Source: a virus. Taken from it: a DNA stretch of 64,000 bases. The first letter of the stretch is position 1; every line of letters starts with the position of its first letter. This document shows, piece by piece, positions 20,061-50,027 of the stretch. The stretch lies in IMG/VR virus record IMGVR_UViG_3300009285_002455. One strand, written 5' to 3'. The position numbers and the translations under genes were made by a program. The notes beneath the pieces were generated by a model, which was not told the origin of the DNA, searched no databases, and saw only the letters and a list, made by a program, of their open reading frames with translations.

Positions 20061-20393
20061 ATGCCAGGATGCACTGTATGCTTAACATTTAGTGGTACCG
20101 CACAAGAATTGTGGGAAGTAACTCATGGTACCACTGCTTATGGCAATTTACCACAGTATAAAAAAGACCAACATGTAGGTAATAAATGGAACCCTTGTCC
20201 ATACTCTACACAAAGTGACGACTTACGTAGTGCTCATAGGCTGGGTATTGTACCCACTAAGGTAGACCACACTGACGATGCTGGTAAAGTATACTACATG
20301 TCTCCAGATAGAAGAAATTCCTGGGGCTATGCGTGTACTTTCGATAATTGCCCATATTTACTAACTAACGGAAGAAGCTATTTTTATAAGTGA
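20061..20393 (+). CDS. hypothetical protein (Cys-containing)
   Basis: AGAGG RBS, 110 aa, N-terminal CxxC. Confidence 0.55.
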   Translation: MPGCTVCLTFSGTAQELWEVTHGTTAYGNLPQYKKDQHVGNKWNPCPYSTQSDDLRSAHRLGIVPTKVDHTDDAGKVYYMSPDRRNSWGYACTFDNCPYLLTNGRSYFYK

Positions 20394-20398
20394 TTACT

Positions 20399-21289
20399 AT
20401 GCCTAAAAAAATAGAATATTGTTTTGTGCGTAATAATTTTGAAGTTGAGGGATATATACTTATAGATAAGACATATATAAATGCTAAAACCAAGATGCAT
20501 TACATATGTCCTTTTGGGCATAAAAATAGTATTACCTGGGGAAATTGGGTTACTGGATATAGATGCCCAGACTGTGCACATAACGCTCCAGTTGCTTTTA
20601 AAGAAGTAAAGAAATCTTTTGAGCAAGCGGGCTACCAACTACTTACAAAAACATATATTAATGCTAAACAAAAATTACTTTTTATATGTAACAACGGGCA
20701 TACCTATTCCATGACTTGGGATCGTTGGAAGCAAGGGCATAGATGCAGAATCTGCGGCGGAACTTGGAAAGAGGGTATTGGAAAAATACGTTTACCTTTA
20801 TATAGCACTTATATGAAAAGGCTAGCTCCTTTTCATGAAATAAAGGAAGTGACTCACGAGGCTGGATTTATCTTATTAGGTGTACATTGCGAGTATTGCA
20901 ATAAAGTAACTGTACCTAATATAGATGAAATAAATCATAGATTGGGTTGCTTAGAAGGGACCAGGCTAGGGGACCAGCGATTTTACTGCTCAGAACAATG
21001 CAAAAATGCTTGTTCTATATATAAGCAGCATACATACCCAAAAGGATTTAAGCCAGCTACTTCCCGTGAAGTACAACCGGCACTAAGAAAATTAGTACTA
21101 GAAAGAGACAACTGGACATGCCAAAAATGCGGAAAAACTGAGGTTGAATTACACTGTCACCACATCGACCCTGTAATCAACAACCCCATAGAATCTGCCG
21201 ATGTTGCTAACTGCATAACATTTTGTAAAGACTGCCATAAAAAAGCACATAAACTGCCTGGCTGTAATTATTCAGAGTTAAAGTGTTGA
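20399..21289 (+). CDS. free-standing HNH homing-type endonuclease with N-terminal Zn-ribbon repeats
   Basis: C-terminal RDNWTCQKCG...LHCHHIDPV...NCITFCKDCHKKAH. Two N-terminal repeats F-x3-GY-x5-YINAK-K-x3-C-x2-GH...RC-x2-C. ATG 20399 preferred over GTG 20390. Confidence 0.88.
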   Translation: MPKKIEYCFVRNNFEVEGYILIDKTYINAKTKMHYICPFGHKNSITWGNWVTGYRCPDCAHNAPVAFKEVKKSFEQAGYQLLTKTYINAKQKLLFICNNGHTYSMTWDRWKQGHRCRICGGTWKEGIGKIRLPLYSTYMKRLAPFHEIKEVTHEAGFILLGVHCEYCNKVTVPNIDEINHRLGCLEGTRLGDQRFYCSEQCKNACSIYKQHTYPKGFKPATSREVQPALRKLVLERDNWTCQKCGKTEVELHCHHIDPVINNPIESADVANCITFCKDCHKKAHKLPGCNYSELKC

Positions 21290-22298: not shown

Positions 22299-22796
22299 AT
22301 GGCAGAGGTATTTGTAAGACACAGCCTTAATGCTAAAAAAGGAGTAAAATTTAATTTTACTTTTAAACAGTACACCCTTAAAAACAAAGATGCAGAAGGA
22401 GATGCTAAATGGGTATTAGAGGTTGGAACCACTTACCCCGCCGCTAACGGCGGTAAAGTACCAACAAAAATAGTTTACGGTATCACAGAAAAAACACTAG
22501 ATGCCGAAATTGAAAAAGCAATAGCTTCTCTTTGTAAATATATAGATTGGACAGAATTTGAGCAAGATAAATACGCACCAGAGGTTGTTGATATAACGCC
22601 CACTGGTGTTGGTGTATTACCTAACTCGTTAATTTCTTTTAAGATAAAGGATAGTTTACCTTCTTCTGGTATAGATCTATCATCTATGAAAGTTACACTA
22701 AATAACGGCACAGTTGATTTTGATATAACAGATCAAATTAGTATTTCAGGCGATCCTTATGAATATTTGATTAGTTGGAAAAATCCTTTTAACTAG
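22299..22796 (+). CDS. structural protein with C-terminally incomplete Ig-like (Big-type) domain
   Basis: APEVVDITP...ISFKIKD...SGIDLSSMKVTLNNG...YEYLISWKNP then stop. Compare the full Ig-like domain in ORF 27767. Confidence 0.55.
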   Translation: MAEVFVRHSLNAKKGVKFNFTFKQYTLKNKDAEGDAKWVLEVGTTYPAANGGKVPTKIVYGITEKTLDAEIEKAIASLCKYIDWTEFEQDKYAPEVVDITPTGVGVLPNSLISFKIKDSLPSSGIDLSSMKVTLNNGTVDFDITDQISISGDPYEYLISWKNPFN

Positions 22797-22806
22797 GAGT
22801 TTATAG

Positions 22807-24678
22807 ATGGCAGATAATATTAAGTTAAGAAAACCTAATTTTACCACATTAGATGGTTATTTTTTAACATTTGATGAAGATCAAGATGCATTGCTACAAA
22901 AAACTGATGATGGTAATACTGCTTTTTCTTATCCATTAGACACTGTATTAACACAAACTATACTTAGCACTGAATACGATGGGCTGTACTTTTGGACTTT
23001 GGAATCAAAAGCAGATGGTAGGATAATTAGGCGTTGGCTAATAGATAATTATGTTTGTAAACTGCAACAAACAATAACTTTAACAAATGACGGCAGTCAT
23101 ACTTATAATGCCAATACTTTTTCTGTCGAACATTATCATACAACGCTAACAGCCTCTGTAACATCTGGATCTACTGAAATTTATTTAAATGAATATTCTA
23201 ATACACCAGAAATAATAAACGGTTGTGTTTTATACATTGGCCCTAATTCTAATAATGATTATGAGTTAGTTACAGTATCTGGTACTATATTTGGTGGTGT
23301 TAGTTTAACTACTCCGCTAGTGTATGGTTATGATTCAAATGATGCTGTGGGATTTAATAAATACCTATGGTTACTAAATAACAGTAATGGTGTGGATACC
23401 AGTACTGGGGCTTTGTATAAGCTAGACTCACATACAGGGGCTTATATAACTAAATACGCTGGCGGACAATATAAAGATATTACAGCATGTACTTTTCATA
23501 AGATAAGCGCTTTCTCTGCTTATGGCTCTGTGGATACATTAGCATATATTAAAGGTACAAACACTTTATTTGTAAATACTTCCTCAAATTTAGCTATGTT
23601 ATACGATGCTACTGAGTCTAATGACTCTTTTACAGCAGCCAATGGTTCTGTCCCAGATACAGATAAATGGGATGTACTTTTAGGTACCCCAACAATCCAA
23701 AGCAATCAATTATACACAAGTACTGCCTCAGGACAAGAAAGTATTATTTCTGATTATTATCTAAGAGGTAATTTTGATGTTACTGTTACGGGTTCTTTAA
23801 ACAGCTATAATACTACTTATTCTGGCGCTAACTACTTTACACATATGTTTGGTTTATGGTTTCCAAATGAAACTAATAGATATTGTTATATAGCTAGGGC
23901 TAATAATAATGAAACAGCCACCCAATCTGGTATAAATAATTTTAATGTCACATCATATAAAGCCACTAAAAATATAGATTACAGTGTCCCAGCCACATAT
24001 AGTGGGGGTGGTTTAGTTGATAACTATATGTTTAGAGTTAGTAGGGCTGCGGATAATGTAAGTTTCTACTATAAAAAGGGGGTAGAAGATTGGGGTTTTA
24101 TGGGTACCGTACAAATGTTCGATACCGAATGCAAACTTTTGCTCGGTTTAAAAAATACATTAGGTAGTACAGTAACAGCCGCTTTCGATGACCTGGTTTA
24201 CAACACAGGGGAATCTGTTTGGTATGTAACCGCGACTAATTTACCCTTTTACGGGTCTATGGTTATGGAAAACATACAAAGTGATGAAATCACAGTTATC
24301 CCCGTATATGATTTAGCAATAGATAATAATAATGTTTATAGATTACAAAATATAGAGGACGGTGGTGGTAGTATGTCTGGATATAACTACCAATTGTCGC
24401 CACTATCCTCGTTCGTAACTTCTATATCGTTGTCCGCATCACCGGCCATAATAGCCGCCAATAATCTAAGTACGTCGGATATCACCGCCTATGTAAAGGA
24501 CCAGTTTTTGCAACCTATTGCCGGCAGAAGAGTAACTTTTTCTGAGAACGGAGATGGTGCTATAACAGCAGGGACACAAATTAATACAGACTCCGATGGT
24601 ATGGCCCAAACAGTATATAGAGCAGGTGTTGTTGCCAGTGAGGTTACTATAACCGCTGTTGTTGAACAGACCAATTAA
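22807..24678 (+). CDS. putative tail fibre/receptor-binding protein, paralog 1 (one lectin-like insert, C-terminal Big_1-like Ig domain)
   Basis: N- and C-terminal scaffold shared with ORFs 24690 and 27767. ConA/LamG-like insert at ~23608-24210. C-terminus ITAYVKDQ...PIAGRRVTF...TDSDGMAQTVY resembles invasin/intimin Big_1. Confidence 0.6.
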   Translation: MADNIKLRKPNFTTLDGYFLTFDEDQDALLQKTDDGNTAFSYPLDTVLTQTILSTEYDGLYFWTLESKADGRIIRRWLIDNYVCKLQQTITLTNDGSHTYNANTFSVEHYHTTLTASVTSGSTEIYLNEYSNTPEIINGCVLYIGPNSNNDYELVTVSGTIFGGVSLTTPLVYGYDSNDAVGFNKYLWLLNNSNGVDTSTGALYKLDSHTGAYITKYAGGQYKDITACTFHKISAFSAYGSVDTLAYIKGTNTLFVNTSSNLAMLYDATESNDSFTAANGSVPDTDKWDVLLGTPTIQSNQLYTSTASGQESIISDYYLRGNFDVTVTGSLNSYNTTYSGANYFTHMFGLWFPNETNRYCYIARANNNETATQSGINNFNVTSYKATKNIDYSVPATYSGGGLVDNYMFRVSRAADNVSFYYKKGVEDWGFMGTVQMFDTECKLLLGLKNTLGSTVTAAFDDLVYNTGESVWYVTATNLPFYGSMVMENIQSDEITVIPVYDLAIDNNNVYRLQNIEDGGGSMSGYNYQLSPLSSFVTSISLSASPAIIAANNLSTSDITAYVKDQFLQPIAGRRVTFSENGDGAITAGTQINTDSDGMAQTVYRAGVVASEVTITAVVEQTN

Positions 24679-24689
24679 AGAGGCCTGTA

Positions 24690-27600
24690 ATGGCATATGA
24701 AAACATCAAGTTATCAAAAGCTAACTTTGTAGTAATAGATGGCTATTTCTATTTTTTAGACTATATAAAAAACAGTTTAATATGTAAAGTAGACGACGGT
24801 TCTACCGCTTTTGAGTATCCCACCGATACTATAATAGGTACTGCAGTTAAAAGTTTACAGTACGACGGTTATTACTTGTGGTCTTTACAAAACCATCCAT
24901 CAGGTGGTTTATTATTTAAAAAATGGGCAATTATAAATTTTATATGTGTATTGATAGATTCTTTTGAATATATAAGCAATACTGTATATACTTATTCCGC
25001 GGAAGCTTTTGGAGTAGAGTATTATAAAACATATATAACATCAATAGCCAACACACACACCAATGTTTTATATATAAATGAATATTATGATAGTGTAATA
25101 ACCGTAGGTACTAAATTAATACTTGGGCCAAATAGCTACCAACAGCGTGAAGAAGTGGAAGTAGCCACCGTTATAGGCGGGCAAATAACATTAACTGACA
25201 GTACACTGTATAAATATAATAATGACGATTTAGTGTGTTTGTGTAATAGCTTTTTTGTGTTTAATAATTATGATGGTGTAGACCCACTAAAAGGCACTTT
25301 ATTTAGATTCGATTCTTATTCCGGCCATCTTTTATCTGCTGCAGTTGATTTAGACTATAAAGACGTAACTGCAGCCACCTTTTATAGACTTCAAAATGTG
25401 CTTCCTGATCATCCTGACGCACATACGCTGGTCTATGTTAAAAATACCAATGCTAAATTATTGGATATGTCTAACCTCGTTAATTTAACAGCTGCGTCCA
25501 GCTTTAATGATAATTTTAATGGTGTTGACCATTCAGATCCAAACAGCTCTTTATGGTCTATTACTAATGGTTCCCCAGAAATACTAAATAATATGTTATC
25601 TTGTAGTACCTCGGCTAATGGCCATAGTTCTATTGAGTCTAATTATTATTTAATGGGTGATTTTGAAGTTCAAGTTAGTGGTACTGTTGGAAGTTTAACC
25701 ACTTTTTCAGGAACACCTGGTTATTTAGAGCACTATGTTGAAATAGATAGCTCATCTAATAATACGTATAATTTTGGTGTGGTTCAGGAAATTAATTATT
25801 TAGACACCATATTTAAAGATAATTTTTTATCTGGTGGTGTAAATTGGCAAAATGTAACTGGCACCGCCGACTATTCCTTAGGATATCTTAAACAAACCAC
25901 TGATGGGGCACTAACTAGGACCATAGAAGAAATAGTCTACGGTACTAATTACAATGTGCTTTTTATGTTTAAAAATGCCGGGCGGGGAATAGGAGATTCA
26001 ACCTATATTGTAAATCCACTATACATCGACGTTAATAATCGTTTGTCTGTAATTATGTATAATTACAGTTCTACTACATATAATGTGGAATTAATTAAAA
26101 TAATAGGGGGCGGTAGTACTTCCTTATATAAAGATCAAAAATATAATTATTATGATTTGTATGGTACTTGGTTTTACGTTAGATTGCTAGTAACTAATGG
26201 TAAAATATATTTTAGGGTTTGGATGGCAGGTGTTACTGAGCCTGTTATTTGGGATTACATCAGTGATAGTACTGTGGCCTCAAATTTGCCTAGCCAAAGC
26301 CGTTTTTATTCTTGGGCACAATACACATCAATAAATGGCACAGGTCTTGATAATGTATACATATCAAATTTAGTTACTACTGATGCAACTACTAATGTAT
26401 TTAATGACGATTTTTCTTTATCTAACGCACAGTGGACAGACACTATACCTACAACTGTGTATACCGCTGGGTACATGAACCACATCACAGACGGTGCTAC
26501 ATCTATCACTAATGACACTGTTTACTACGGTACAAAGTGGGAAGTATTCTTTAAATTTAAGAACCACGGTAGAGGAGTTAATGCTGATCAATACATAGTA
26601 TCCCCAATTTACTTTGATGCTAATAATAAATTATACGTATATATGAACACTAATTCATATTTAACAGGTACTAATTACATTAGTCTAAATAAATCTATTA
26701 GCGGTGTAGTAACCACAATATACACCAGTTATAAATATAATTATTATATATATTACGGTTATTGGTATAATATACGTATAGCTCGTTCAGACGATTTCAT
26801 ATATTTTAAGGTATGGATAGATGGTAGTTTAGAGCCCACTAATTGGGATTACATAGGTCCAGCTGCTGGTGCAGATTTGCCAGTAGAGGCTTATTTACAA
26901 TCGCAAGCCGTGTATACAGGAGATGCTGGTACTGGGTTGGATAACATAAGTATAAAAACATATGAGGTGGTAGATTATTCTGAGGCACCTTATGAAAATA
27001 TTTATGCTTATATTAAAACTAATGATACCTTAATTGAAAAAACGCATCTGTACTCTGGTTTAACTACGTACCCTACTTATTTATTAAAAATAAATAAAAA
27101 TGGTGCTAATTTGGCTTTTGAGTATAAAACTACTACCTCAGGCATATACAACGATACTTGGAATTCATTACATATTGCAACTGACTATGGTAGCCAAGCT
27201 ACATTAGCTTTGGGTGCGGAAGCTGTTTCTATGATAAATAGTGATGTTTATTTCGATGATTTAATATATACATCTGGCAAAGGCTACGTGGGAGAGTTAA
27301 CCACAGAACTATTTGGTGTTATGAATATGGACAACGTAAGGGCTGATCAGGTAACTAATATAGCCATTTATGACTTAGCTATAAATAAGGACACTATGTA
27401 TAGATTACAATTAGAAGCCACCTATTATGGGGTTGATAATAGTTGGGCTACATACAATTACCAAACATCTCCTATAAGACCTTTTGTAGATTTTATATCA
27501 CTAGGCGCAAACCCGTTAATACTTCCGGCAGATGGTAAAAGCGTTTCCGTAATAACTGCCATTGTTCAAGATCAGTACGGTAATGGTATGATTAATAAAC

Positions 27601-27758
27601 CGGTATCATTTACAGATAACAACACCATAGGCTATATAACTACACCACAAGTCTATACAGATCAATACTATAATACAGGAAAAGCAGTAACAGTTTATAA
27701 ATCAGGAACTGATGTAACACCTGTAATTATAGAAGGTACAGCCACCCAATATGACTGA
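24690..27758 (+). CDS. putative tail fibre/receptor-binding protein, paralog 2 (nested lectin-like modules)
   Basis: Same scaffold as 22807. Two ~190-aa tandem homologous beta-sandwich modules (~25803-26372 and ~26391-26963) are inserted within a third. Big_1-like C-terminus. Confidence 0.6.
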   Translation: MAYENIKLSKANFVVIDGYFYFLDYIKNSLICKVDDGSTAFEYPTDTIIGTAVKSLQYDGYYLWSLQNHPSGGLLFKKWAIINFICVLIDSFEYISNTVYTYSAEAFGVEYYKTYITSIANTHTNVLYINEYYDSVITVGTKLILGPNSYQQREEVEVATVIGGQITLTDSTLYKYNNDDLVCLCNSFFVFNNYDGVDPLKGTLFRFDSYSGHLLSAAVDLDYKDVTAATFYRLQNVLPDHPDAHTLVYVKNTNAKLLDMSNLVNLTAASSFNDNFNGVDHSDPNSSLWSITNGSPEILNNMLSCSTSANGHSSIESNYYLMGDFEVQVSGTVGSLTTFSGTPGYLEHYVEIDSSSNNTYNFGVVQEINYLDTIFKDNFLSGGVNWQNVTGTADYSLGYLKQTTDGALTRTIEEIVYGTNYNVLFMFKNAGRGIGDSTYIVNPLYIDVNNRLSVIMYNYSSTTYNVELIKIIGGGSTSLYKDQKYNYYDLYGTWFYVRLLVTNGKIYFRVWMAGVTEPVIWDYISDSTVASNLPSQSRFYSWAQYTSINGTGLDNVYISNLVTTDATTNVFNDDFSLSNAQWTDTIPTTVYTAGYMNHITDGATSITNDTVYYGTKWEVFFKFKNHGRGVNADQYIVSPIYFDANNKLYVYMNTNSYLTGTNYISLNKSISGVVTTIYTSYKYNYYIYYGYWYNIRIARSDDFIYFKVWIDGSLEPTNWDYIGPAAGADLPVEAYLQSQAVYTGDAGTGLDNISIKTYEVVDYSEAPYENIYAYIKTNDTLIEKTHLYSGLTTYPTYLLKINKNGANLAFEYKTTTSGIYNDTWNSLHIATDYGSQATLALGAEAVSMINSDVYFDDLIYTSGKGYVGELTTELFGVMNMDNVRADQVTNIAIYDLAINKDTMYRLQLEATYYGVDNSWATYNYQTSPIRPFVDFISLGANPLILPADGKSVSVITAIVQDQYGNGMINKPVSFTDNNTIGYITTPQVYTDQYYNTGKAVTVYKSGTDVTPVIIEGTATQYD

Positions 27759-27766
27759 GGCAATTT

Positions 27767-30373
27767 ATGGCTTATGAAAATATATATTTTAAGTATGGTA
27801 ACTTTTGTATAGCACCCATCATTAATACTTTTGGCAGTATTGATACCACTAATGCTGCGGCCGTTCTGCAAATACGTAATTCATCCGGCGCTGTACAAGG
27901 AAACTATACTTTAAATCCTACCATACCACAAAATTCCACTGTTGATTCTCTTATTTATACAGGGCCTATAAATACTTCAATATTAGCAGATGGTATGCCT
28001 TTTTTTACATTACAGCATACTGATGTCTCTAATTGTGTTATAAAGCGATGGGAATTAAATAATACCTCTAATAGATTAGATTTAGTGCAAACATTAAATA
28101 TAACAGATAGCGGCTCTGACAATTTTGATTGTTACACAGCGTCTTTGGAACATTATACTACTACGTTTTCTGCCGCCACCGCTTCTGGAACTGGATATAT
28201 AAATGTATCAAGTACTGCACGTATGGTTGCTGGTGATATACTTTATTTAGGTCCAAGTAGCCATGCTAATAATATAAACGCTTTTGAACTGGCCTTGGTA
28301 ACTGCTGTATCAGGTACAAGGGTTGATATAGTACCCACTATATCTGGTGCGCCGACACCTCCCAATAATTATTACAATTCTTCTGATGCTGTAACGTACT
28401 ATAAAGATATATTACTTTTTAGTAATTTAGGAGAATCAGGGGATGTAACCAAAGGCACACTATTTAGATTGGACTCAATTTCAGGAAGTATAATAGATAG
28501 ACATAGGAGTGGTTTATACAAAGATATTATAGCATCTAGGTATGGTGTGCCTTATACTAATACAGTAGCATTTATTAAAGGTAATAACATACTATATGTA
28601 GATATAGATGACTTTGAGGTTAAAAAATCACAATCTATATTAAATGTTAAAGCGGATGGTATGACATCAATAACCACATATGATATAGAGTTTACAAACA
28701 CTGTTATATATAGACTACAAAAAGAGACTACTTTAAGAAATGACGATGGTACACAATCTGACTACACATGGGCAAACTATAATTATCAACAAGACAGTGT
28801 GATACCATATGTGGATTCATTAGCTATGTGGGCGGCACCATCAAGCACGCTACACAACCAAGAACAGACAACTATGTATGCATTAGTTAGAGACCAGTAT
28901 GGCAACGCTTTATCTGGAATAGTGGTGTATTTTGATAAAGTCTCTGGTGATTCGAATGGTAACTACGACGATATAAACAAACAAGATACCACGGATAGTA
29001 ATGGTTTAGCCTCGTTGACCTATACTAGTGGTTGGTATGATCCTAATATTGCAGATTCTTGTTGTGATATAATAAGTCTAACCACAAAAGTTTCGGGAGC
29101 AAGCACTTATACAGGCAGTCAATATGTTTGGGGCATTATGTCCTTGGACTTATTAAAAAAATATATTCATATGACTTACCCTGGTATAATAACACAGAAG
29201 CTTGATACCATTGAAAATAATACCATTTTAAAACAATTAGTAGATCTTTATATAACTTATGTTTTAAAGTCTTTGAGCAAATTTTGGTTTCCTGGTGGAG
29301 ATGGTGATCAGCCATCGCCGCCTGGTAATGCTCCGCTTATAAAACAAATTTTGGATTTTACAAGCAAAGCTGACTTTGTGCAAGCGGCTAATTTTGAAAG
29401 TGATCTATTGTTAGATCAATTATCTCCTAAAACAGATACATTGCAGCTTAGTCAAACTTACATAAGTAGGCACATGTCTTCTGGGCATAAAGATGATGTA
29501 ACAATAAATCAATTTAGATTTTTAATAGACGCCGTGCCTAAATTCTGGTCAGAGAAAAATAGTGTTGATACTACAATATGGCTTAGACTGGCACCGTTTG
29601 GTTATGATCTTGATGCGGCCACGCTATCTTTTAAAGTCAGAGAAGTATCTTACGCAGGTGACACAGGACTGGTAGAGTACGCCAACACCGCTAATATAGT
29701 AGTAAATACTTACGACGCCGGTAGTGGGCTGCTTGGACTGGATATAACAGTCACACCAATAAATTTTTTCCACTCGAACGCAGTTGTTTATGTATTCGTT
29801 GTTGTATATGATAAAGCACCAATACCAAATAAGATAATGTTGGATTATTGGTTTAAAACAATTGCTGACTACAAAGCACCTTTTATCATTAATGAGTACC
29901 CCGCCAGAGAAGCGCTAGATGTACCTGTGGATACAGAGATAGAATTTGATTTACTTGATATTAATGTAGGAGTAGATATAAACAGTTTAGAGTTCTATGT
30001 TAATAATAGAAAAAAGCTTCCAATAATAAATACCATCACTCAGGGTTATCATATTAAGTATATACCAGAGGTAGATTTTCACTTCGGCCAAACAGTAGAA
30101 ATAACTGTACGTGTTAAAGACGCATCAGACCAAGCTAATTACTTATTTGATACTTATCGTTTTTACTGTATAGCTAGTAGCGGTCCTTGGTTTGATTTGG
30201 AATCACTCTCTCCCTCCGAGTGTAAATCAGGTGTATTTAGAAAATTAGGTGAGGTGTCACTTAATGTATATGCAATAGATGACGCTGGAATAGATAGACA
30301 AAGTATTACCTTAGATGTAGATAGGCATCGTGTTACTATAACCACCAAGCCTATATTACTACGAATAATGTAA
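27767..30373 (+). CDS. putative tail fibre/baseplate protein, paralog 3 (no lectin insert; Big_1-like plus further Ig-like domains)
   Basis: MAYENI start and scaffold shared with 24690. YALVRDQYGNALSGIVVYF (Big_1-like). C-terminal Ig-like domains, the last truncated. Confidence 0.6.
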   Translation: MAYENIYFKYGNFCIAPIINTFGSIDTTNAAAVLQIRNSSGAVQGNYTLNPTIPQNSTVDSLIYTGPINTSILADGMPFFTLQHTDVSNCVIKRWELNNTSNRLDLVQTLNITDSGSDNFDCYTASLEHYTTTFSAATASGTGYINVSSTARMVAGDILYLGPSSHANNINAFELALVTAVSGTRVDIVPTISGAPTPPNNYYNSSDAVTYYKDILLFSNLGESGDVTKGTLFRLDSISGSIIDRHRSGLYKDIIASRYGVPYTNTVAFIKGNNILYVDIDDFEVKKSQSILNVKADGMTSITTYDIEFTNTVIYRLQKETTLRNDDGTQSDYTWANYNYQQDSVIPYVDSLAMWAAPSSTLHNQEQTTMYALVRDQYGNALSGIVVYFDKVSGDSNGNYDDINKQDTTDSNGLASLTYTSGWYDPNIADSCCDIISLTTKVSGASTYTGSQYVWGIMSLDLLKKYIHMTYPGIITQKLDTIENNTILKQLVDLYITYVLKSLSKFWFPGGDGDQPSPPGNAPLIKQILDFTSKADFVQAANFESDLLLDQLSPKTDTLQLSQTYISRHMSSGHKDDVTINQFRFLIDAVPKFWSEKNSVDTTIWLRLAPFGYDLDAATLSFKVREVSYAGDTGLVEYANTANIVVNTYDAGSGLLGLDITVTPINFFHSNAVVYVFVVVYDKAPIPNKIMLDYWFKTIADYKAPFIINEYPAREALDVPVDTEIEFDLLDINVGVDINSLEFYVNNRKKLPIINTITQGYHIKYIPEVDFHFGQTVEITVRVKDASDQANYLFDTYRFYCIASSGPWFDLESLSPSECKSGVFRKLGEVSLNVYAIDDAGIDRQSITLDVDRHRVTITTKPILLRIM

Positions 30374-30397
30374 CTATCTAAATAATAGAGGGATTAG

Positions 30398-31012
30398 ATG
30401 GCTATAACAATAATGGATTTTGCAATAAGTCTTAATGATTGGGTATATATAGAAGACCCCATAGCATTTTCGTCTACTGTTTACGATACTACAACATCAG
30501 GCATAAACCCATTAAATACTTATTATATATTTAATGATGTTATTTTGCCTACTAGTGTATCAGGTCTGGGTGCTGGTTACTATATAATAGAAACATTCCC
30601 TCTAAGTGTAAGTGGTGCCGTAGATTTAACATTACATATATCAAACTATGACGCTGAAGCTTTGGAGGAGAATTATTCCTTTTTGTTTGGGTATCATATT
30701 TTATATAAAGATCCTAATAAAGATTGGGGCGCAGACAAGGAGATATTAATATCGGCAGCAGCAACAAACACCGCTATATGTCCAAATTCAGAAAGAGTCA
30801 CAACTTACTTTACAACAAAAGAATACGACCACTACGACTTGGCTTCCAGTATAGTTCCGACAGGCTGGGCAAATCTTGGTGCTGAGATAAAACCGCAAAC
30901 AATGCAATACTTTTATGGGCATACATATACCGTAACAGTTAGTGGTATAAAGGATTATAACGGCAATCAATTGCCTGCATTTAGTTGGTATTTTACGATA
31001 ATCAGTAATTAA
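30398..31012 (+). CDS. Ig-like structural protein
   Basis: 204 aa. Ends YGHTYTVTVSGIKDYNGNQLPAFSWYFTI, typical of the last strands of SbsA/Big_5-like Ig domains. Confidence 0.55.
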   Translation: MAITIMDFAISLNDWVYIEDPIAFSSTVYDTTTSGINPLNTYYIFNDVILPTSVSGLGAGYYIIETFPLSVSGAVDLTLHISNYDAEALEENYSFLFGYHILYKDPNKDWGADKEILISAAATNTAICPNSERVTTYFTTKEYDHYDLASSIVPTGWANLGAEIKPQTMQYFYGHTYTVTVSGIKDYNGNQLPAFSWYFTIISN

Positions 31013-31039: not shown

Positions 31040-32593
31040 ATGTGTGCTGCAATAACTAGATGGGTAGAACTAGATCCGTCCACAGCAGGAGATTATGGTG
31101 ACGGTAGAGGAGCCGGCTGTAAAGGCACCCGTGCCTCATCTACTGCTACAGCTGCTGTAGGAGACACATTTACCATAGGGCCCGCTAATAATAGGCTTTA
31201 CTTATCTATGGATGGTGACCCTGCACCATACATAACCCTTTATTCTGGAACAAGCCTTGACCCTAGATTTGTGGCCAGGGATATTACAGAGAAAATGCAT
31301 GATCTAGGTAAAAGTGACGAACGTTGGGACAAAGCTGTCTGTGAATGGACTAATACAGCTGGACAAGGTAATTGTTTTCAAATTTACTCTGGTACTATGG
31401 GAGTAGCATCAACTGTCGCTGTTATAAGTGGTACAAACACAGTGCATGCCACATTAGGGTTTAGTACTAGAAGTGAAGTGGGTGGTTTAGCCACAACCAA
31501 CAACTTCGCTGGAACAGTAACAATCTCCGGAACGTATAAAGGTTTCTTTGATGAAACGTACAAAGTAGTCATAACTAATGATAATGATGCTGCAAGAGGA
31601 ATAGGTACAGCCTCAAAAGTTATTACCTACGGGGGTATTATGACTACCGGTGGTGTGTATAATTATAGTGCCGATACAACATACACTATAACAATAGACA
31701 TAACTAATGGCACAACTATGGGTGGTGGGACGGGTAATGTACCTATGATGACTTGGTCAGCATCTCCTTCCGCAGACAATTCCACCGTAGCCACAGAGCT
31801 TTTATATGCAAATCATTGGTATAAGATAGGCACCCGTGGGCTTATGATTAAGTTTACAGATGCTGTTTTCTCAGCAGGCTATTGGACAGTACCTTGCTAT
31901 AAACCTGACTATACTAGTGGCACTAATGTTACAGACCCAGCAGGTTCTGCTATGTTTGCTTACTCATCCACAAGAGGGGACATGGGGGCAGCCGCCCCGA
32001 CCCCAGCAGAGGGTAATTGGGCACGATTAGGTACAAGAGGCTTATATATTAAATTTGAGCCCACAGGGCCTACTGATTACCTAGGAATACGCGATGAGTT
32101 CACTATTTTATGTTCAGGTCCTAAACCAAAGTCCTATGATATAACCAGTCTTAATTATGGAAATGTCACTGTGTCTACCGAGAGTCCAGTCAAATGTGTC
32201 ATGTTTGAAATTGTTTCCGGCGCCGTGCAGTCAAGCTCTATAAAATTTGGGTTACAGAGCCACGGTAGTTTTTCTCACCATGAAGCGGGTAACAATGATA
32301 CCTATTTTAGATTTGGCACCGTAGGCCCAGGCAGTAACGCCGGTATAGCCCCAGAAAATGGTATAGAATGGTATCCAGGTATAACCGCCGCTGATATAGA
32401 CAGCAACACGCCTCCTGCGTACTTATATCACACTGTAGCTAATATGTTGGTTGTAGCCACAGCAGATGATAGTGAGAGTGTAGGAAATATTGGCTTGACA
32501 AGCGACCCAATATTTGTTAACATACGTTTAGGCGCAAGTGAGACAGGGGCGAATTCTACTATTAATCAAAGAACTTTTTTTGATTTTAGTTAA
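31040..32593 (+). CDS. putative tail/baseplate structural protein
   Basis: AAGGAGG RBS, 517 aa, Gly/Thr-rich. Shares a domain with 21316 and 38769. Confidence 0.55.
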   Translation: MCAAITRWVELDPSTAGDYGDGRGAGCKGTRASSTATAAVGDTFTIGPANNRLYLSMDGDPAPYITLYSGTSLDPRFVARDITEKMHDLGKSDERWDKAVCEWTNTAGQGNCFQIYSGTMGVASTVAVISGTNTVHATLGFSTRSEVGGLATTNNFAGTVTISGTYKGFFDETYKVVITNDNDAARGIGTASKVITYGGIMTTGGVYNYSADTTYTITIDITNGTTMGGGTGNVPMMTWSASPSADNSTVATELLYANHWYKIGTRGLMIKFTDAVFSAGYWTVPCYKPDYTSGTNVTDPAGSAMFAYSSTRGDMGAAAPTPAEGNWARLGTRGLYIKFEPTGPTDYLGIRDEFTILCSGPKPKSYDITSLNYGNVTVSTESPVKCVMFEIVSGAVQSSSIKFGLQSHGSFSHHEAGNNDTYFRFGTVGPGSNAGIAPENGIEWYPGITAADIDSNTPPAYLYHTVANMLVVATADDSESVGNIGLTSDPIFVNIRLGASETGANSTINQRTFFDFS

Positions 32594-48707: not shown

Positions 48708-50027
48708 ATGGCAAATTTGGATTTAAACTCTATAATAAGACCCAACGTTACAAGGGATCTATACAGCGCTATAAATGCGGGGTACTTTGGTATTACAAAG
48801 GATTTGCCAGCCTATGTAAATGCTATAATACCCACTAATCTAAACTCAGTAATACATGGTTTTGATATAAGAGATTTACCAGCAACAATTAATGCTGTTT
48901 ATGGTCCCAACGACATACAATCCACAATAAACCCAATACCCTCCTTAGATCTAAAAAGTAGTATTTCTGGATTTAAAGCACTGAATGCTACCTATAATTT
49001 GCACTCTGTGATAGAAGGTTACTATACCTTTAATTTAACAAGTACAATAAAACCTATTATACCCAAAGATTTAAATTCATATATAAATTCTATTGGTAAA
49101 ACAACTGATCTGAGATCTTCTATAATACCTATGACCATACTAATGAGCAAGGTATTTAATGTGTCCTTGCTTGAATATAAAGAGTTACCTTCATTCATAA
49201 ATTGTGGTTGTAGACAATCTGGTTATAGTGATTTAAATTCCAATCTATATGCATTAATGAAACTGGACTTACAGAGTTACATCATAGGATGGTTCGGTGA
49301 CTACGCTAAAAATATTAGAGATTTGAAGTCTTATATAAATGCTGGAAGTGCTTTTGTAATAGATACATTAGATATTCATTTTAATGTGGAGAAGCCCCAT
49401 ACACAATTAAACTTAGTAGTAAATCCAAATAAAACCCTGTATAAAGTTATTGACATTTTGACGGCCGCTTTCTCAAATAAAGCATATGCTACATTAGGTG
49501 CATCTATTTATGGTCACCCAACTTCTAAAAATCTAAGCTCATATATTAATGCCCAAGTACAATCTAATTTTAATCCAACCCCTGAATGGATTAAACCCAA
49601 AACAACAGAGGTGTTTATAAATTTAACACGGTTTGAACAACGTTGGCAGCGATTTGTTGATTTAATGTTTGGTTCTGGCATTAACGGTGAACATTATTAT
49701 TTTTACGTTGCGGGCGATGAAAAAATATATAAAGTAGATAAGAATCAGCAATGGACCTTGTGGGTAACAGGCTATGACAAAGACCCTGATAATATGGTAG
49801 AGCGCATAAATATTAAACGTAAATTTATATTTAATTTAAGTAAATATAGTTCAATGGATCAAGCCATAAAAGACATGATGTCCAGAGTCGCAGAACCACG
49901 CGTAACTAATTTAAATACTTCCATAACAGGAATTCTACCGGTACACGCTGAGTTGACCTCAGAAATCCACCCCATAGTAAAATATACCTGGACAAAAAAT
50001 CTCAATAGTAATATAATAGCAAATTAA
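48708..50027 (+). CDS. repeat-rich putative fibre protein, last gene of the structural block
   Basis: About 20 copies of a 10-16 aa motif [DN]L-x-[SA]-x-I. Confidence 0.55.
   Translation: MANLDLNSIIRPNVTRDLYSAINAGYFGITKDLPAYVNAIIPTNLNSVIHGFDIRDLPATINAVYGPNDIQSTINPIPSLDLKSSISGFKALNATYNLHSVIEGYYTFNLTSTIKPIIPKDLNSYINSIGKTTDLRSSIIPMTILMSKVFNVSLLEYKELPSFINCGCRQSGYSDLNSNLYALMKLDLQSYIIGWFGDYAKNIRDLKSYINAGSAFVIDTLDIHFNVEKPHTQLNLVVNPNKTLYKVIDILTAAFSNKAYATLGASIYGHPTSKNLSSYINAQVQSNFNPTPEWIKPKTTEVFINLTRFEQRWQRFVDLMFGSGINGEHYYFYVAGDEKIYKVDKNQQWTLWVTGYDKDPDNMVERINIKRKFIFNLSKYSSMDQAIKDMMSRVAEPRVTNLNTSITGILPVHAELTSEIHPIVKYTWTKNLNSNIIAN

Follow-up and report, generated by a model that had tools for sequence, protein, structure and literature searches.

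Genes 27767 and 30398 of an uncultured virus (IMG/VR record IMGVR_UViG_3300009285_002455) encode two proteins, P0002 (868 amino acids, aa) and P0003 (204 aa), which are proposed to assemble via a naturally split immunoglobulin (Ig)-like domain. All the evidence for this assembly is computational, and its probability is estimated at roughly 0.65. The DNA analyzed, hereafter the window, spans 64,000 nucleotides (nt) and is part of a 104-kb virus record. According to the proposed mechanism, one Big_5/CopC-like Ig domain would be divided between both proteins, with P0002 ending with strands A–C′, and P0003 holding a complete Ig domain followed by the missing strands E-F-G. As a continuous chain, the two would form one Ig domain whose C′–E loop houses another, and the insert would begin at the gene boundary. 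The half sandwich left exposed at the C-terminus of P0002 (the socket) would fold only, or stably only, with the three strands of P0003 (the plug), giving rise to a tight non-covalent heterodimer by fragment complementation.

The link between P0002 and P0003 is supported by complementary profile halves, conserved stop positions, synteny, two colinear natural fusions, and an AlphaFold2 (AF2) model of the read-through chain; that the two assemble in trans, and with what role in the virion, is inferred. A third protein, P0001 (gene 22299, 165 aa), also ends in a partial Ig domain. The initial annotation had suggested that P0003 may be an adaptor locking P0001 and P0002 together; these five lines of evidence uphold its link to P0002, but the link to P0001, and hence the two-partner idea, draws on indirect evidence only.

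Partial Ig-like domains in P0001, P0002, and P0003

For the strand assignment, the family alignments were cut into pieces, and their profiles were compared with hhalign. The reference was the complete Big_5/CopC-like domain of P0002 (residues 702–801, nt 29870–30169), and a canonical Big_5 repeat profile of 107 positions was made from tandem-repeat proteins. The pieces are referred to as Dhalf (P0002 802–868), M1 (P0003 1–97), M2a (P0003 98–141), M2b (P0003 165–204), and P1C (P0001 88–165), and "module" denotes a unit of ~200 residues that corresponds to a whole P0003-like sequence.

Dhalf aligns with positions 3–56 of the reference, that is, strands A–C′ (probability 96.8, E-value 2.7e-10), and residues 98–138 of P0003 (nt 30689–30811) align with positions 59–98, strands E-F-G (probability 94, E-value 1.4e-7). 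M1, located between these two halves, covers the full length of the reference (probability 97). P0001 residues 92–164 align with reference positions 2–68, strands A–E (probability 96.3, E-value 1.8e-9), as well as with positions 3–63 of the canonical repeat, whose positions 64–106, again strands E-F-G, are matched by M2b (probability 97.8, E-value 8e-13). Once joined, Dhalf and M2a match the reference end to end (E-value 2e-16, 96 columns), and P1C and M2b match canonical positions 3–106 of 107 (E-value 2e-15). This end-to-end fit of the joined halves to a whole domain is far beyond chance.

The hhalign comparison thus confirms the split strand pattern that the initial annotation had read from the sequence, and its four partial pieces are present at the positions given there: the product of gene 22299 ends after strand E, and that of gene 30398 restarts at strands E-F-G after a complete domain. 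The last domain of P0002 is incomplete, as claimed, but it ends after C′ plus one long terminal strand rather than after strand D. Likewise, the orphan strands at the end of P0003 are present, but they are not F-G alone, as strand E is included.

The Pfam family Big_5 (PF13205; gathering score of 23.6 bits) gives 22.4 bits for the whole P0003, 24.5 bits for its 63-residue C-terminal fragment, and 13.9 bits for the complete domain of P0002. The match in the C-terminal piece of P0003 is restricted to model positions 52/54–104 of 105, and neither P0003 nor P0001 covers the whole domain; this partial coverage per protein is the finding itself. A single complete Big_5 domain with a divergent first half, spanning residues 98–204 of P0003, was also considered and rejected, as hhalign places residues 98–138 on strands E–G and not on A–C.

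Gene boundaries and gene order in related phages

The genes of P0002 and P0003 share the same frame, with four stops between their coding regions: the TAA of P0002 itself (30371–30373), followed by TAA, TAG, and TAG in the spacer. Nearly all of the P0002 homologues (~118 of 119), down to 41% identity, stop at one alignment column, just after the half domain. The six relatives of P0003 with identities of 57–83% are all 202–204 aa long, and the homologues of P0001 (n = 46) are mostly 163–172 aa, with a few shorter or longer, most of them covering 97–100% of the query. An extension of P0001 by frameshifting is ruled out by a stop located directly before the ATG of gene 22807. The stops are therefore conserved in all three families, as the initial annotation had suggested checking.

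A total of 36 related viral loci were fetched, ~33 of which are informative. Their gene order consists of a P0001-like gene, one or two paralogues of the N-terminal region of P0002, a P0002-like gene, and one module gene, and the P0002-like protein ends in the half domain in all ~33 contigs. In 17 loci, the module gene stands alone (~202–216 aa) and lies 24–39 nt downstream of the P0002-like gene, out of frame with it in 13 of the 17. In 13 other loci (arrangement 2), the module is the end of a protein of 448–552 aa encoded 1.9–3.7 kb downstream, directly preceding a homologue of gene 31040, as is also the case in the window. These 13 loci (within L017–L038) hold two to five extra open reading frames (ORFs) between the two genes, none of them with a counterpart in the window, and their module proteins bear an additional N-terminal extension of ~230–330 aa.

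These data bear on two explanations in which the split would be only apparent. The first one, a recent nonsense mutation, sequencing error, or pseudogene derived from a single ancestral gene, could draw on the shared frame, the 24-nt distance, and the existence of fused homologues; the four in-frame stops, the Shine–Dalgarno (SD) sequence and ATG that P0003 has of its own, and the 13 out-of-frame gene pairs speak against it. It is refuted by the conservation of the stop column, which leaves it a negligible probability, so the nonsense mutation or sequencing error that the initial annotation had named as a possible objection is not borne out. The second one is recoding, where read-through or frameshifting would yield one fused chain in the phage. 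Ig-like domains are sometimes joined to phage structural proteins by programmed frameshifts, which provides a general precedent. In the window, however, one shift or one suppressed stop would not suffice, as both genes are in the same frame and are separated by four stops of two kinds. Moreover, the frames vary among related loci, the start codon and the SD sequence are conserved, and other genes lie between both partners in the 13 loci of arrangement 2. Recoding is thus very improbable. Taken together, the conserved stops, the four stops in frame, and the SD sequence and ATG of P0003 exclude both explanations for practical purposes.

Natural fusions and distribution of the module

When 1.8 billion representatives were searched with the profile of P0003, 209 hits were obtained, among them two natural fusions. 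In P0134 (1090 aa), a P0002-like protein is followed by the module in colinear order, with roughly nine residues linking them. P0137 (587 aa) represents another fusion, likewise colinear and independent of the first. They show that the P0002 C-terminus can be as close as approximately nine residues to the N-terminus of the module. The initial annotation had listed fused homologues as an argument against the split; such homologues do exist, but they are rare (two among more than 200 representatives) and the split form dominates. Both genes are separate in 31 of 31 non-redundant related loci holding the two of them, as well as in the window. With the split state as the conserved majority, the fusions provide Rosetta-stone evidence for contact rather than pointing to a recent nonsense mutation.

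The module is also the C-terminal end of many proteins of 450–525 aa with fibre-like repeats. The longer proteins that carry the module lack the half-domain profile upstream of it, the exceptions being the two fusions and a weak hit in P0078. Proteins of 780–1220 aa (P0067, P0074, P0080, P0092, P0093, and P0112) hold the module at their C-terminus as well, and their N-terminal parts resemble DUF2341/LamG domains by eye; a search of the viral collection for these LamG-bearing module proteins provided no new loci or contigs. As it is the C-terminal end of proteins of 450–1220 aa in other lineages, the module may be a portable unit for docking.

Several other observations concern the families of P0002 and P0001. 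P0270, a partial P0002 homologue of 565 aa, is deposited under a metagenome-assembled genome of Candidatus Hodarchaeales (an Asgard archaeon), which could be either a binning artefact or a hint of the host. In a 206-kb viral contig (L039, 4853–15757), a protein of 3634 aa holds at least eight repeats of the unit that makes up the Ig region at the P0002 C-terminus (positions ~655–855 of the family profile). Most P0001 homologues bear a C-terminal tail like RVYDTYD after their last strand, resembling the PIIYRI end of the P0002 half domain (alignment A6). This tail is absent in the P0001 of the window and in its closest relative, and is shorter or different in a few related loci.

Structural model of the read-through chain

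The shared frame of both genes made it possible to build a pseudo-fusion, P0324, in which the four stops are read as glycine. Its 380 residues comprise the complete domain of P0002 (1–100), the half domain (101–167), a linker (168–176), and P0003 (177–380). The model was obtained with a curated alignment (A5) of 73 rows (7 paired, including the query, 19 P0002 fragments, and 47 modules), taken from locus fragments and checked row by row. A5 omits misplaced C-terminal rows of P0002, including those of L010, L011, L023, L025, L027, L029, L032, L035, L036, and L037. An earlier mixed alignment (A2) was dropped because MAFFT had spread the P0002 homologues over the module, the Ig domains being homologous to each other.

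AF2 modeled P0324 with a mean predicted local distance difference test (pLDDT) score of 89.2 and a predicted template modeling score of 0.67. The half domain consists of strands 107–114, 128–134, 147–150, and 158–169 (pLDDT 84–98). A single long strand (264–280) links the last strand of M1 (G) to strand E of M2a, whose strands F (291–300) and G (307–317) lie in blocks with a pLDDT of 86–97. Residues 318–351 are modeled as coil (pLDDT 57–64), and they are followed only by an F-G hairpin (352–357/371–376; pLDDT ~84).

Two complete domains of the model have an Ig-like β sandwich with a CopC-like fold. Residues 3–101 align with CopC (2c9r; VIA-align) with a Z score of 11.2 and a root-mean-square deviation (rmsd) of 2.0 Å over 90 residues, and residues 175–273 (M1) align with Ig constant domains with a Z score of 8.3. 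Chains with two tandem Ig domains align from model residue 1 to residues 315–322, over 171–187 residues; these include NCAM2 (2wim_B; Z score of 7.7, rmsd of 3.9 Å, 171 residues), titin Z1Z2 (rmsd of 6.0 Å, 180 residues), and VEGFR-2 D4-5 (rmsd of 6.0 Å, 187 residues). The first domain contributes ~100 aligned residues at most and the alignments stop at strand G of M2a, which identifies residues 101–167 plus 274–317 as the second Ig domain. These halves therefore appear to form one Ig sandwich in the model, with M1 nested in the C′–E loop. This arrangement would correspond to a discontinuous domain with a nested insertion, in which the profile halves 3–56 and 59–98 flank a full domain.

Several points weigh against this reading. 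The composite domain is deduced from secondary structure, pLDDT, and structural-alignment ranges rather than from measured contacts, and the sole confident model is that of a single chain with an artificial nine-residue linker. The alignment behind it is mostly unpaired, and the rows misplaced by MAFFT were removed from it. Furthermore, any N-terminal half combined with any C-terminal half aligns with the reference domain, which makes the sequence a weak guide to which pieces pair with each other. Co-divergence speaks in favor of the proposed pairs, as the correlation left after removal of the background peaks for Dhalf and M2a (0.54), and P1C correlates best with M2b (0.44); however, these values come from 28 related genomes and carry no significance test. 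Apart from these points, AF2 on P0003 alone, with an alignment of six sequences, was uninformative (pLDDT 39), Foldseek searches against the PDB and BFVD returned generic multi-Ig matches only, and the ESM Atlas provided only weak Ig-like neighbors for P0001.

An alternative dispenses with complementation in trans: the partial Ig segments would be truncated but self-sufficient β modules that pack on neighboring domains of their own chain, and the gene adjacency would only reflect a shared structural operon. Consistent with it, a monomer model of P0001 with moderate confidence (pLDDT 0.71) exists in the ESM Atlas, the AF2 evidence comes solely from the fused chain, and many module proteins have no half domain of their own, which implies that expression of the module without a cis partner does at least occur. 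Against it, the halves end and begin at matching positions of the parent fold, every P0002-like protein stops exactly with the half domain, and two independent natural fusions are colinear. In addition, the strands of M2a are confidently modeled, and the tandem-Ig alignments require both these strands and the half domain of P0002. This alternative is considered improbable, and a split domain shared by P0002 and P0003 is preferred.

The C-terminal end of P0003 and its possible partners

Beyond the proposed junction with P0002, P0003 holds a second set of strands E-F-G (M2b), and AF2 models this end of the protein as incomplete. It can be tentatively suggested that M2b is completed by the A–E half domain of P0001, in which case P0003 would act as a two-plug adaptor, although the odds for this second link stay below even. 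The indications for it are indirect and come from the sequences, namely piece counting, subtype matching, and weak co-divergence. P0001 provides the only other N-terminal half found. By subtype, P1C and M2b group with canonical Big_5, while the divergent subtype is the only one matched by Dhalf and M2a, as would be expected if two ancestral domains had each been split once. A 234-kb sister contig (89% complete), whose gene order is that of the window, points in the same direction. There, the half-domain profile of P0001 matches only the homologues of P0001 and P0002, and the whole-module profile only that of P0003, which fits two N-terminal and two C-terminal halves per genome, the profiles of Dhalf, M2a, and M2b not having been searched separately in that genome.

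Other features of these proteins argue against the pairing of P0001 and M2b. Both have strand E, which means an overlap rather than an exact fit. Residues 147–166 of P0003 carry two copies of a 12-residue DLxSxIxP-like repeat (the first one starting at 147, the second at 159–166). This repeat is shared with the product of gene 48708, which opens the possibility of a different partner for the end of P0003. The gene 48708 product (48708–50027, 439 aa) is probably a fibre-like repeat protein, with 18 such motifs, mostly 12 residues apart, compared to 1.2 expected by shuffling. Three copies of the motif are also found at the N-terminus of the homologue P0014.

Accordingly, P0003 could join P0002 while M2b, instead of pairing with P0001, pairs with another copy of P0003 by strand swapping in an oligomer, or joins a fibre of DLxSxIxP-like repeats such as the product of gene 48708. 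Besides the shared repeat and the overlap in strand E, repeated weak hits of the M2b profile in the gene 48708 product would favor such a partner. On the other side, P1C and M2b share one subtype and jointly cover nearly the whole canonical repeat, M2b is the best P1C partner in the co-divergence analysis, and the P1C and module profiles match nothing beyond the three proteins in the sister genome. A partner other than P0001 is regarded as less likely than not.

A more general proposal, also doubtful at present, is that the module constitutes a portable two-plug connector. One set of strands E-F-G would complete a P0002-like half and the other one a P0001-like half, stapling two virion proteins together, and in other lineages the module, present at the C-terminus of fibre-like or LamG-bearing proteins, would dock varied cargo onto a socket that is itself conserved. 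If this is true, the two-plug module on fibre-like and LamG-bearing proteins would represent a natural plug-and-socket system for exchanging tail appendages.

Genetic neighborhood

All the long ORFs of the window are carried by the + strand. A giant protein of more than 4750 aa is followed by many proteins without a family match, and then by a replication block encoding a clamp, a UvsX-like recombinase, a DnaB-like helicase, a primase, and an exonuclease. The genes of P0002 and P0003 would belong to a putative tail tip/baseplate cluster of an uncultured phage of ~235 kb, provided that the giant upstream protein is the tape measure. The coordinates of the features are listed in Table 1.

Table 1. 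Features of the partial Ig-like domains and of the neighboring genes in the window
Feature	Coordinates (nt)	Strand	Description
P0001	22299..22796	+	165 aa; residues 1–87 without assigned fold; 88–165, N-terminal part of a Big_5-like Ig domain (strands A–E, without F-G)
P1C	22560..22793	+	P0001 half domain, strands A–E; candidate socket for the last strands of P0003, by inference only
Two P0002 paralogues	22807..27758	+	623 and 1022 aa; Big_1/invasin-like Ig domains at their ends (Pfam)
P0002	27767..30373	+	868 aa; complete Big_5/CopC-like domain (702–801), then terminal 67-residue half domain
Dhalf	30170..30370	+	Strands A–C′ and long terminal strand; exact C-terminus in ~118/119 homologues; proposed socket
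Intergenic spacer	30374..30397	+	24 nt; three in-frame stops inside; SD-like AGAGGGA before the ATG of gene 30398
M1	30398..30688	+	P0003 1–97; complete Ig domain; nested insert between the halves of the split domain
M2a	30689..30820	+	P0003 98–141; E-F-G half; proposed plug 1, completing the P0002 half domain
Linker	30821..30889	+	P0003 142–164; AF2 pLDDT 57–64, no secondary structure
M2b	30890..31012	+	P0003 165–204; canonical Big_5 strands E-F-G; no A–C′ partner in the same chain; proposed plug 2
517-aa protein	31040..32593	+	Immediately downstream of the module gene in the window and in 13/13 arrangement-2 loci examined (blastp of locus ORFs against window proteins)

Genes 22807, 24690, and 27767 are paralogues with a common N-terminal region of ~260–420 aa, and their middle and C-terminal parts diverge. 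The counterparts of both P0002 paralogues in related loci are matched by the hidden Markov model of the P0002 family. A free-standing HNH endonuclease gene (20390–21289, 299 aa) is located amid structural genes, and overlaps the stop of gene 20061 by 4 nt.

Neither P0001–P0003 nor their structural neighbors had a match in PHROGs, and sequence profile searches of the PDB returned nothing useful for these proteins. No relatives were found in a phage genome collection by protein or DNA search, and a metagenome scan contributed one short contig.

Comparison with known systems

Ig-like domains are common on the tail and head proteins of phages. Pfam Big_5 and CopC-like domains, as well as the accessory Ig domains of phage virion proteins, belong to the same fold class as the domains described here, as illustrated by the match with CopC. 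However, the known accessory Ig domains are complete within one chain, whereas here each protein holds only parts of them; a split of this kind in phage tail proteins was not described in the literature searched. If confirmed, the complex of P0002 and P0003 would represent a natural assembly principle for phage tail proteins, where two separately encoded fragments rebuild one Ig fold with a nested domain at the junction. The pattern is shared by a large clade of large uncultured phages, whose structural proteins have no sequence match in PHROGs or the PDB. The seemingly broken domains at the ends of these proteins would thereby be explained, and virion binding partners could be annotated more easily in unculturable phages. 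Protein engineering might also gain a non-covalent socket-and-plug pair of natural origin.

The initial annotation had compared the arrangement with the donor-strand complementation of pili. In the chaperone-usher pili (such as the Fim and Pap pilins), an incomplete Ig-like fold is also completed by one or more strands of another polypeptide, resulting in a very stable non-covalent link between subunits. Pilins lack one strand (G), which comes from the chaperone or from the extended N-terminus of the following subunit, whereas the P0002 half lacks three (E-F-G). Unlike in pili, the donor segment is internal to P0003 (98–141, after a complete domain), and a whole Ig domain is nested at the junction. 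Furthermore, Pfam and PHROG scans of the neighboring proteins revealed no chaperone or usher families, and the cluster is that of a phage. The likeness is therefore one of principle, with three strands instead of one and no chaperone or usher.

Naturally split domains, such as the split DnaE inteins, and Rosetta-stone fission/fusion pairs share with P0002 and P0003 that one fold is built from two genes, that fused versions exist elsewhere, and that association is expected to occur by completion of the fold. Unlike the split DnaE inteins, no catalysis or splicing is involved here, the fold is an Ig sandwich in virion proteins, and the split form is the conserved majority. Finally, in the SpyTag/SpyCatcher system (split CnaB2), an Ig-like domain is likewise cut into a larger part and a strand-donating part that join proteins together. 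That system is engineered and sealed by an isopeptide bond, whereas the pair formed by P0002 and P0003 would be natural, presumably non-covalent, and held together by three donated strands.

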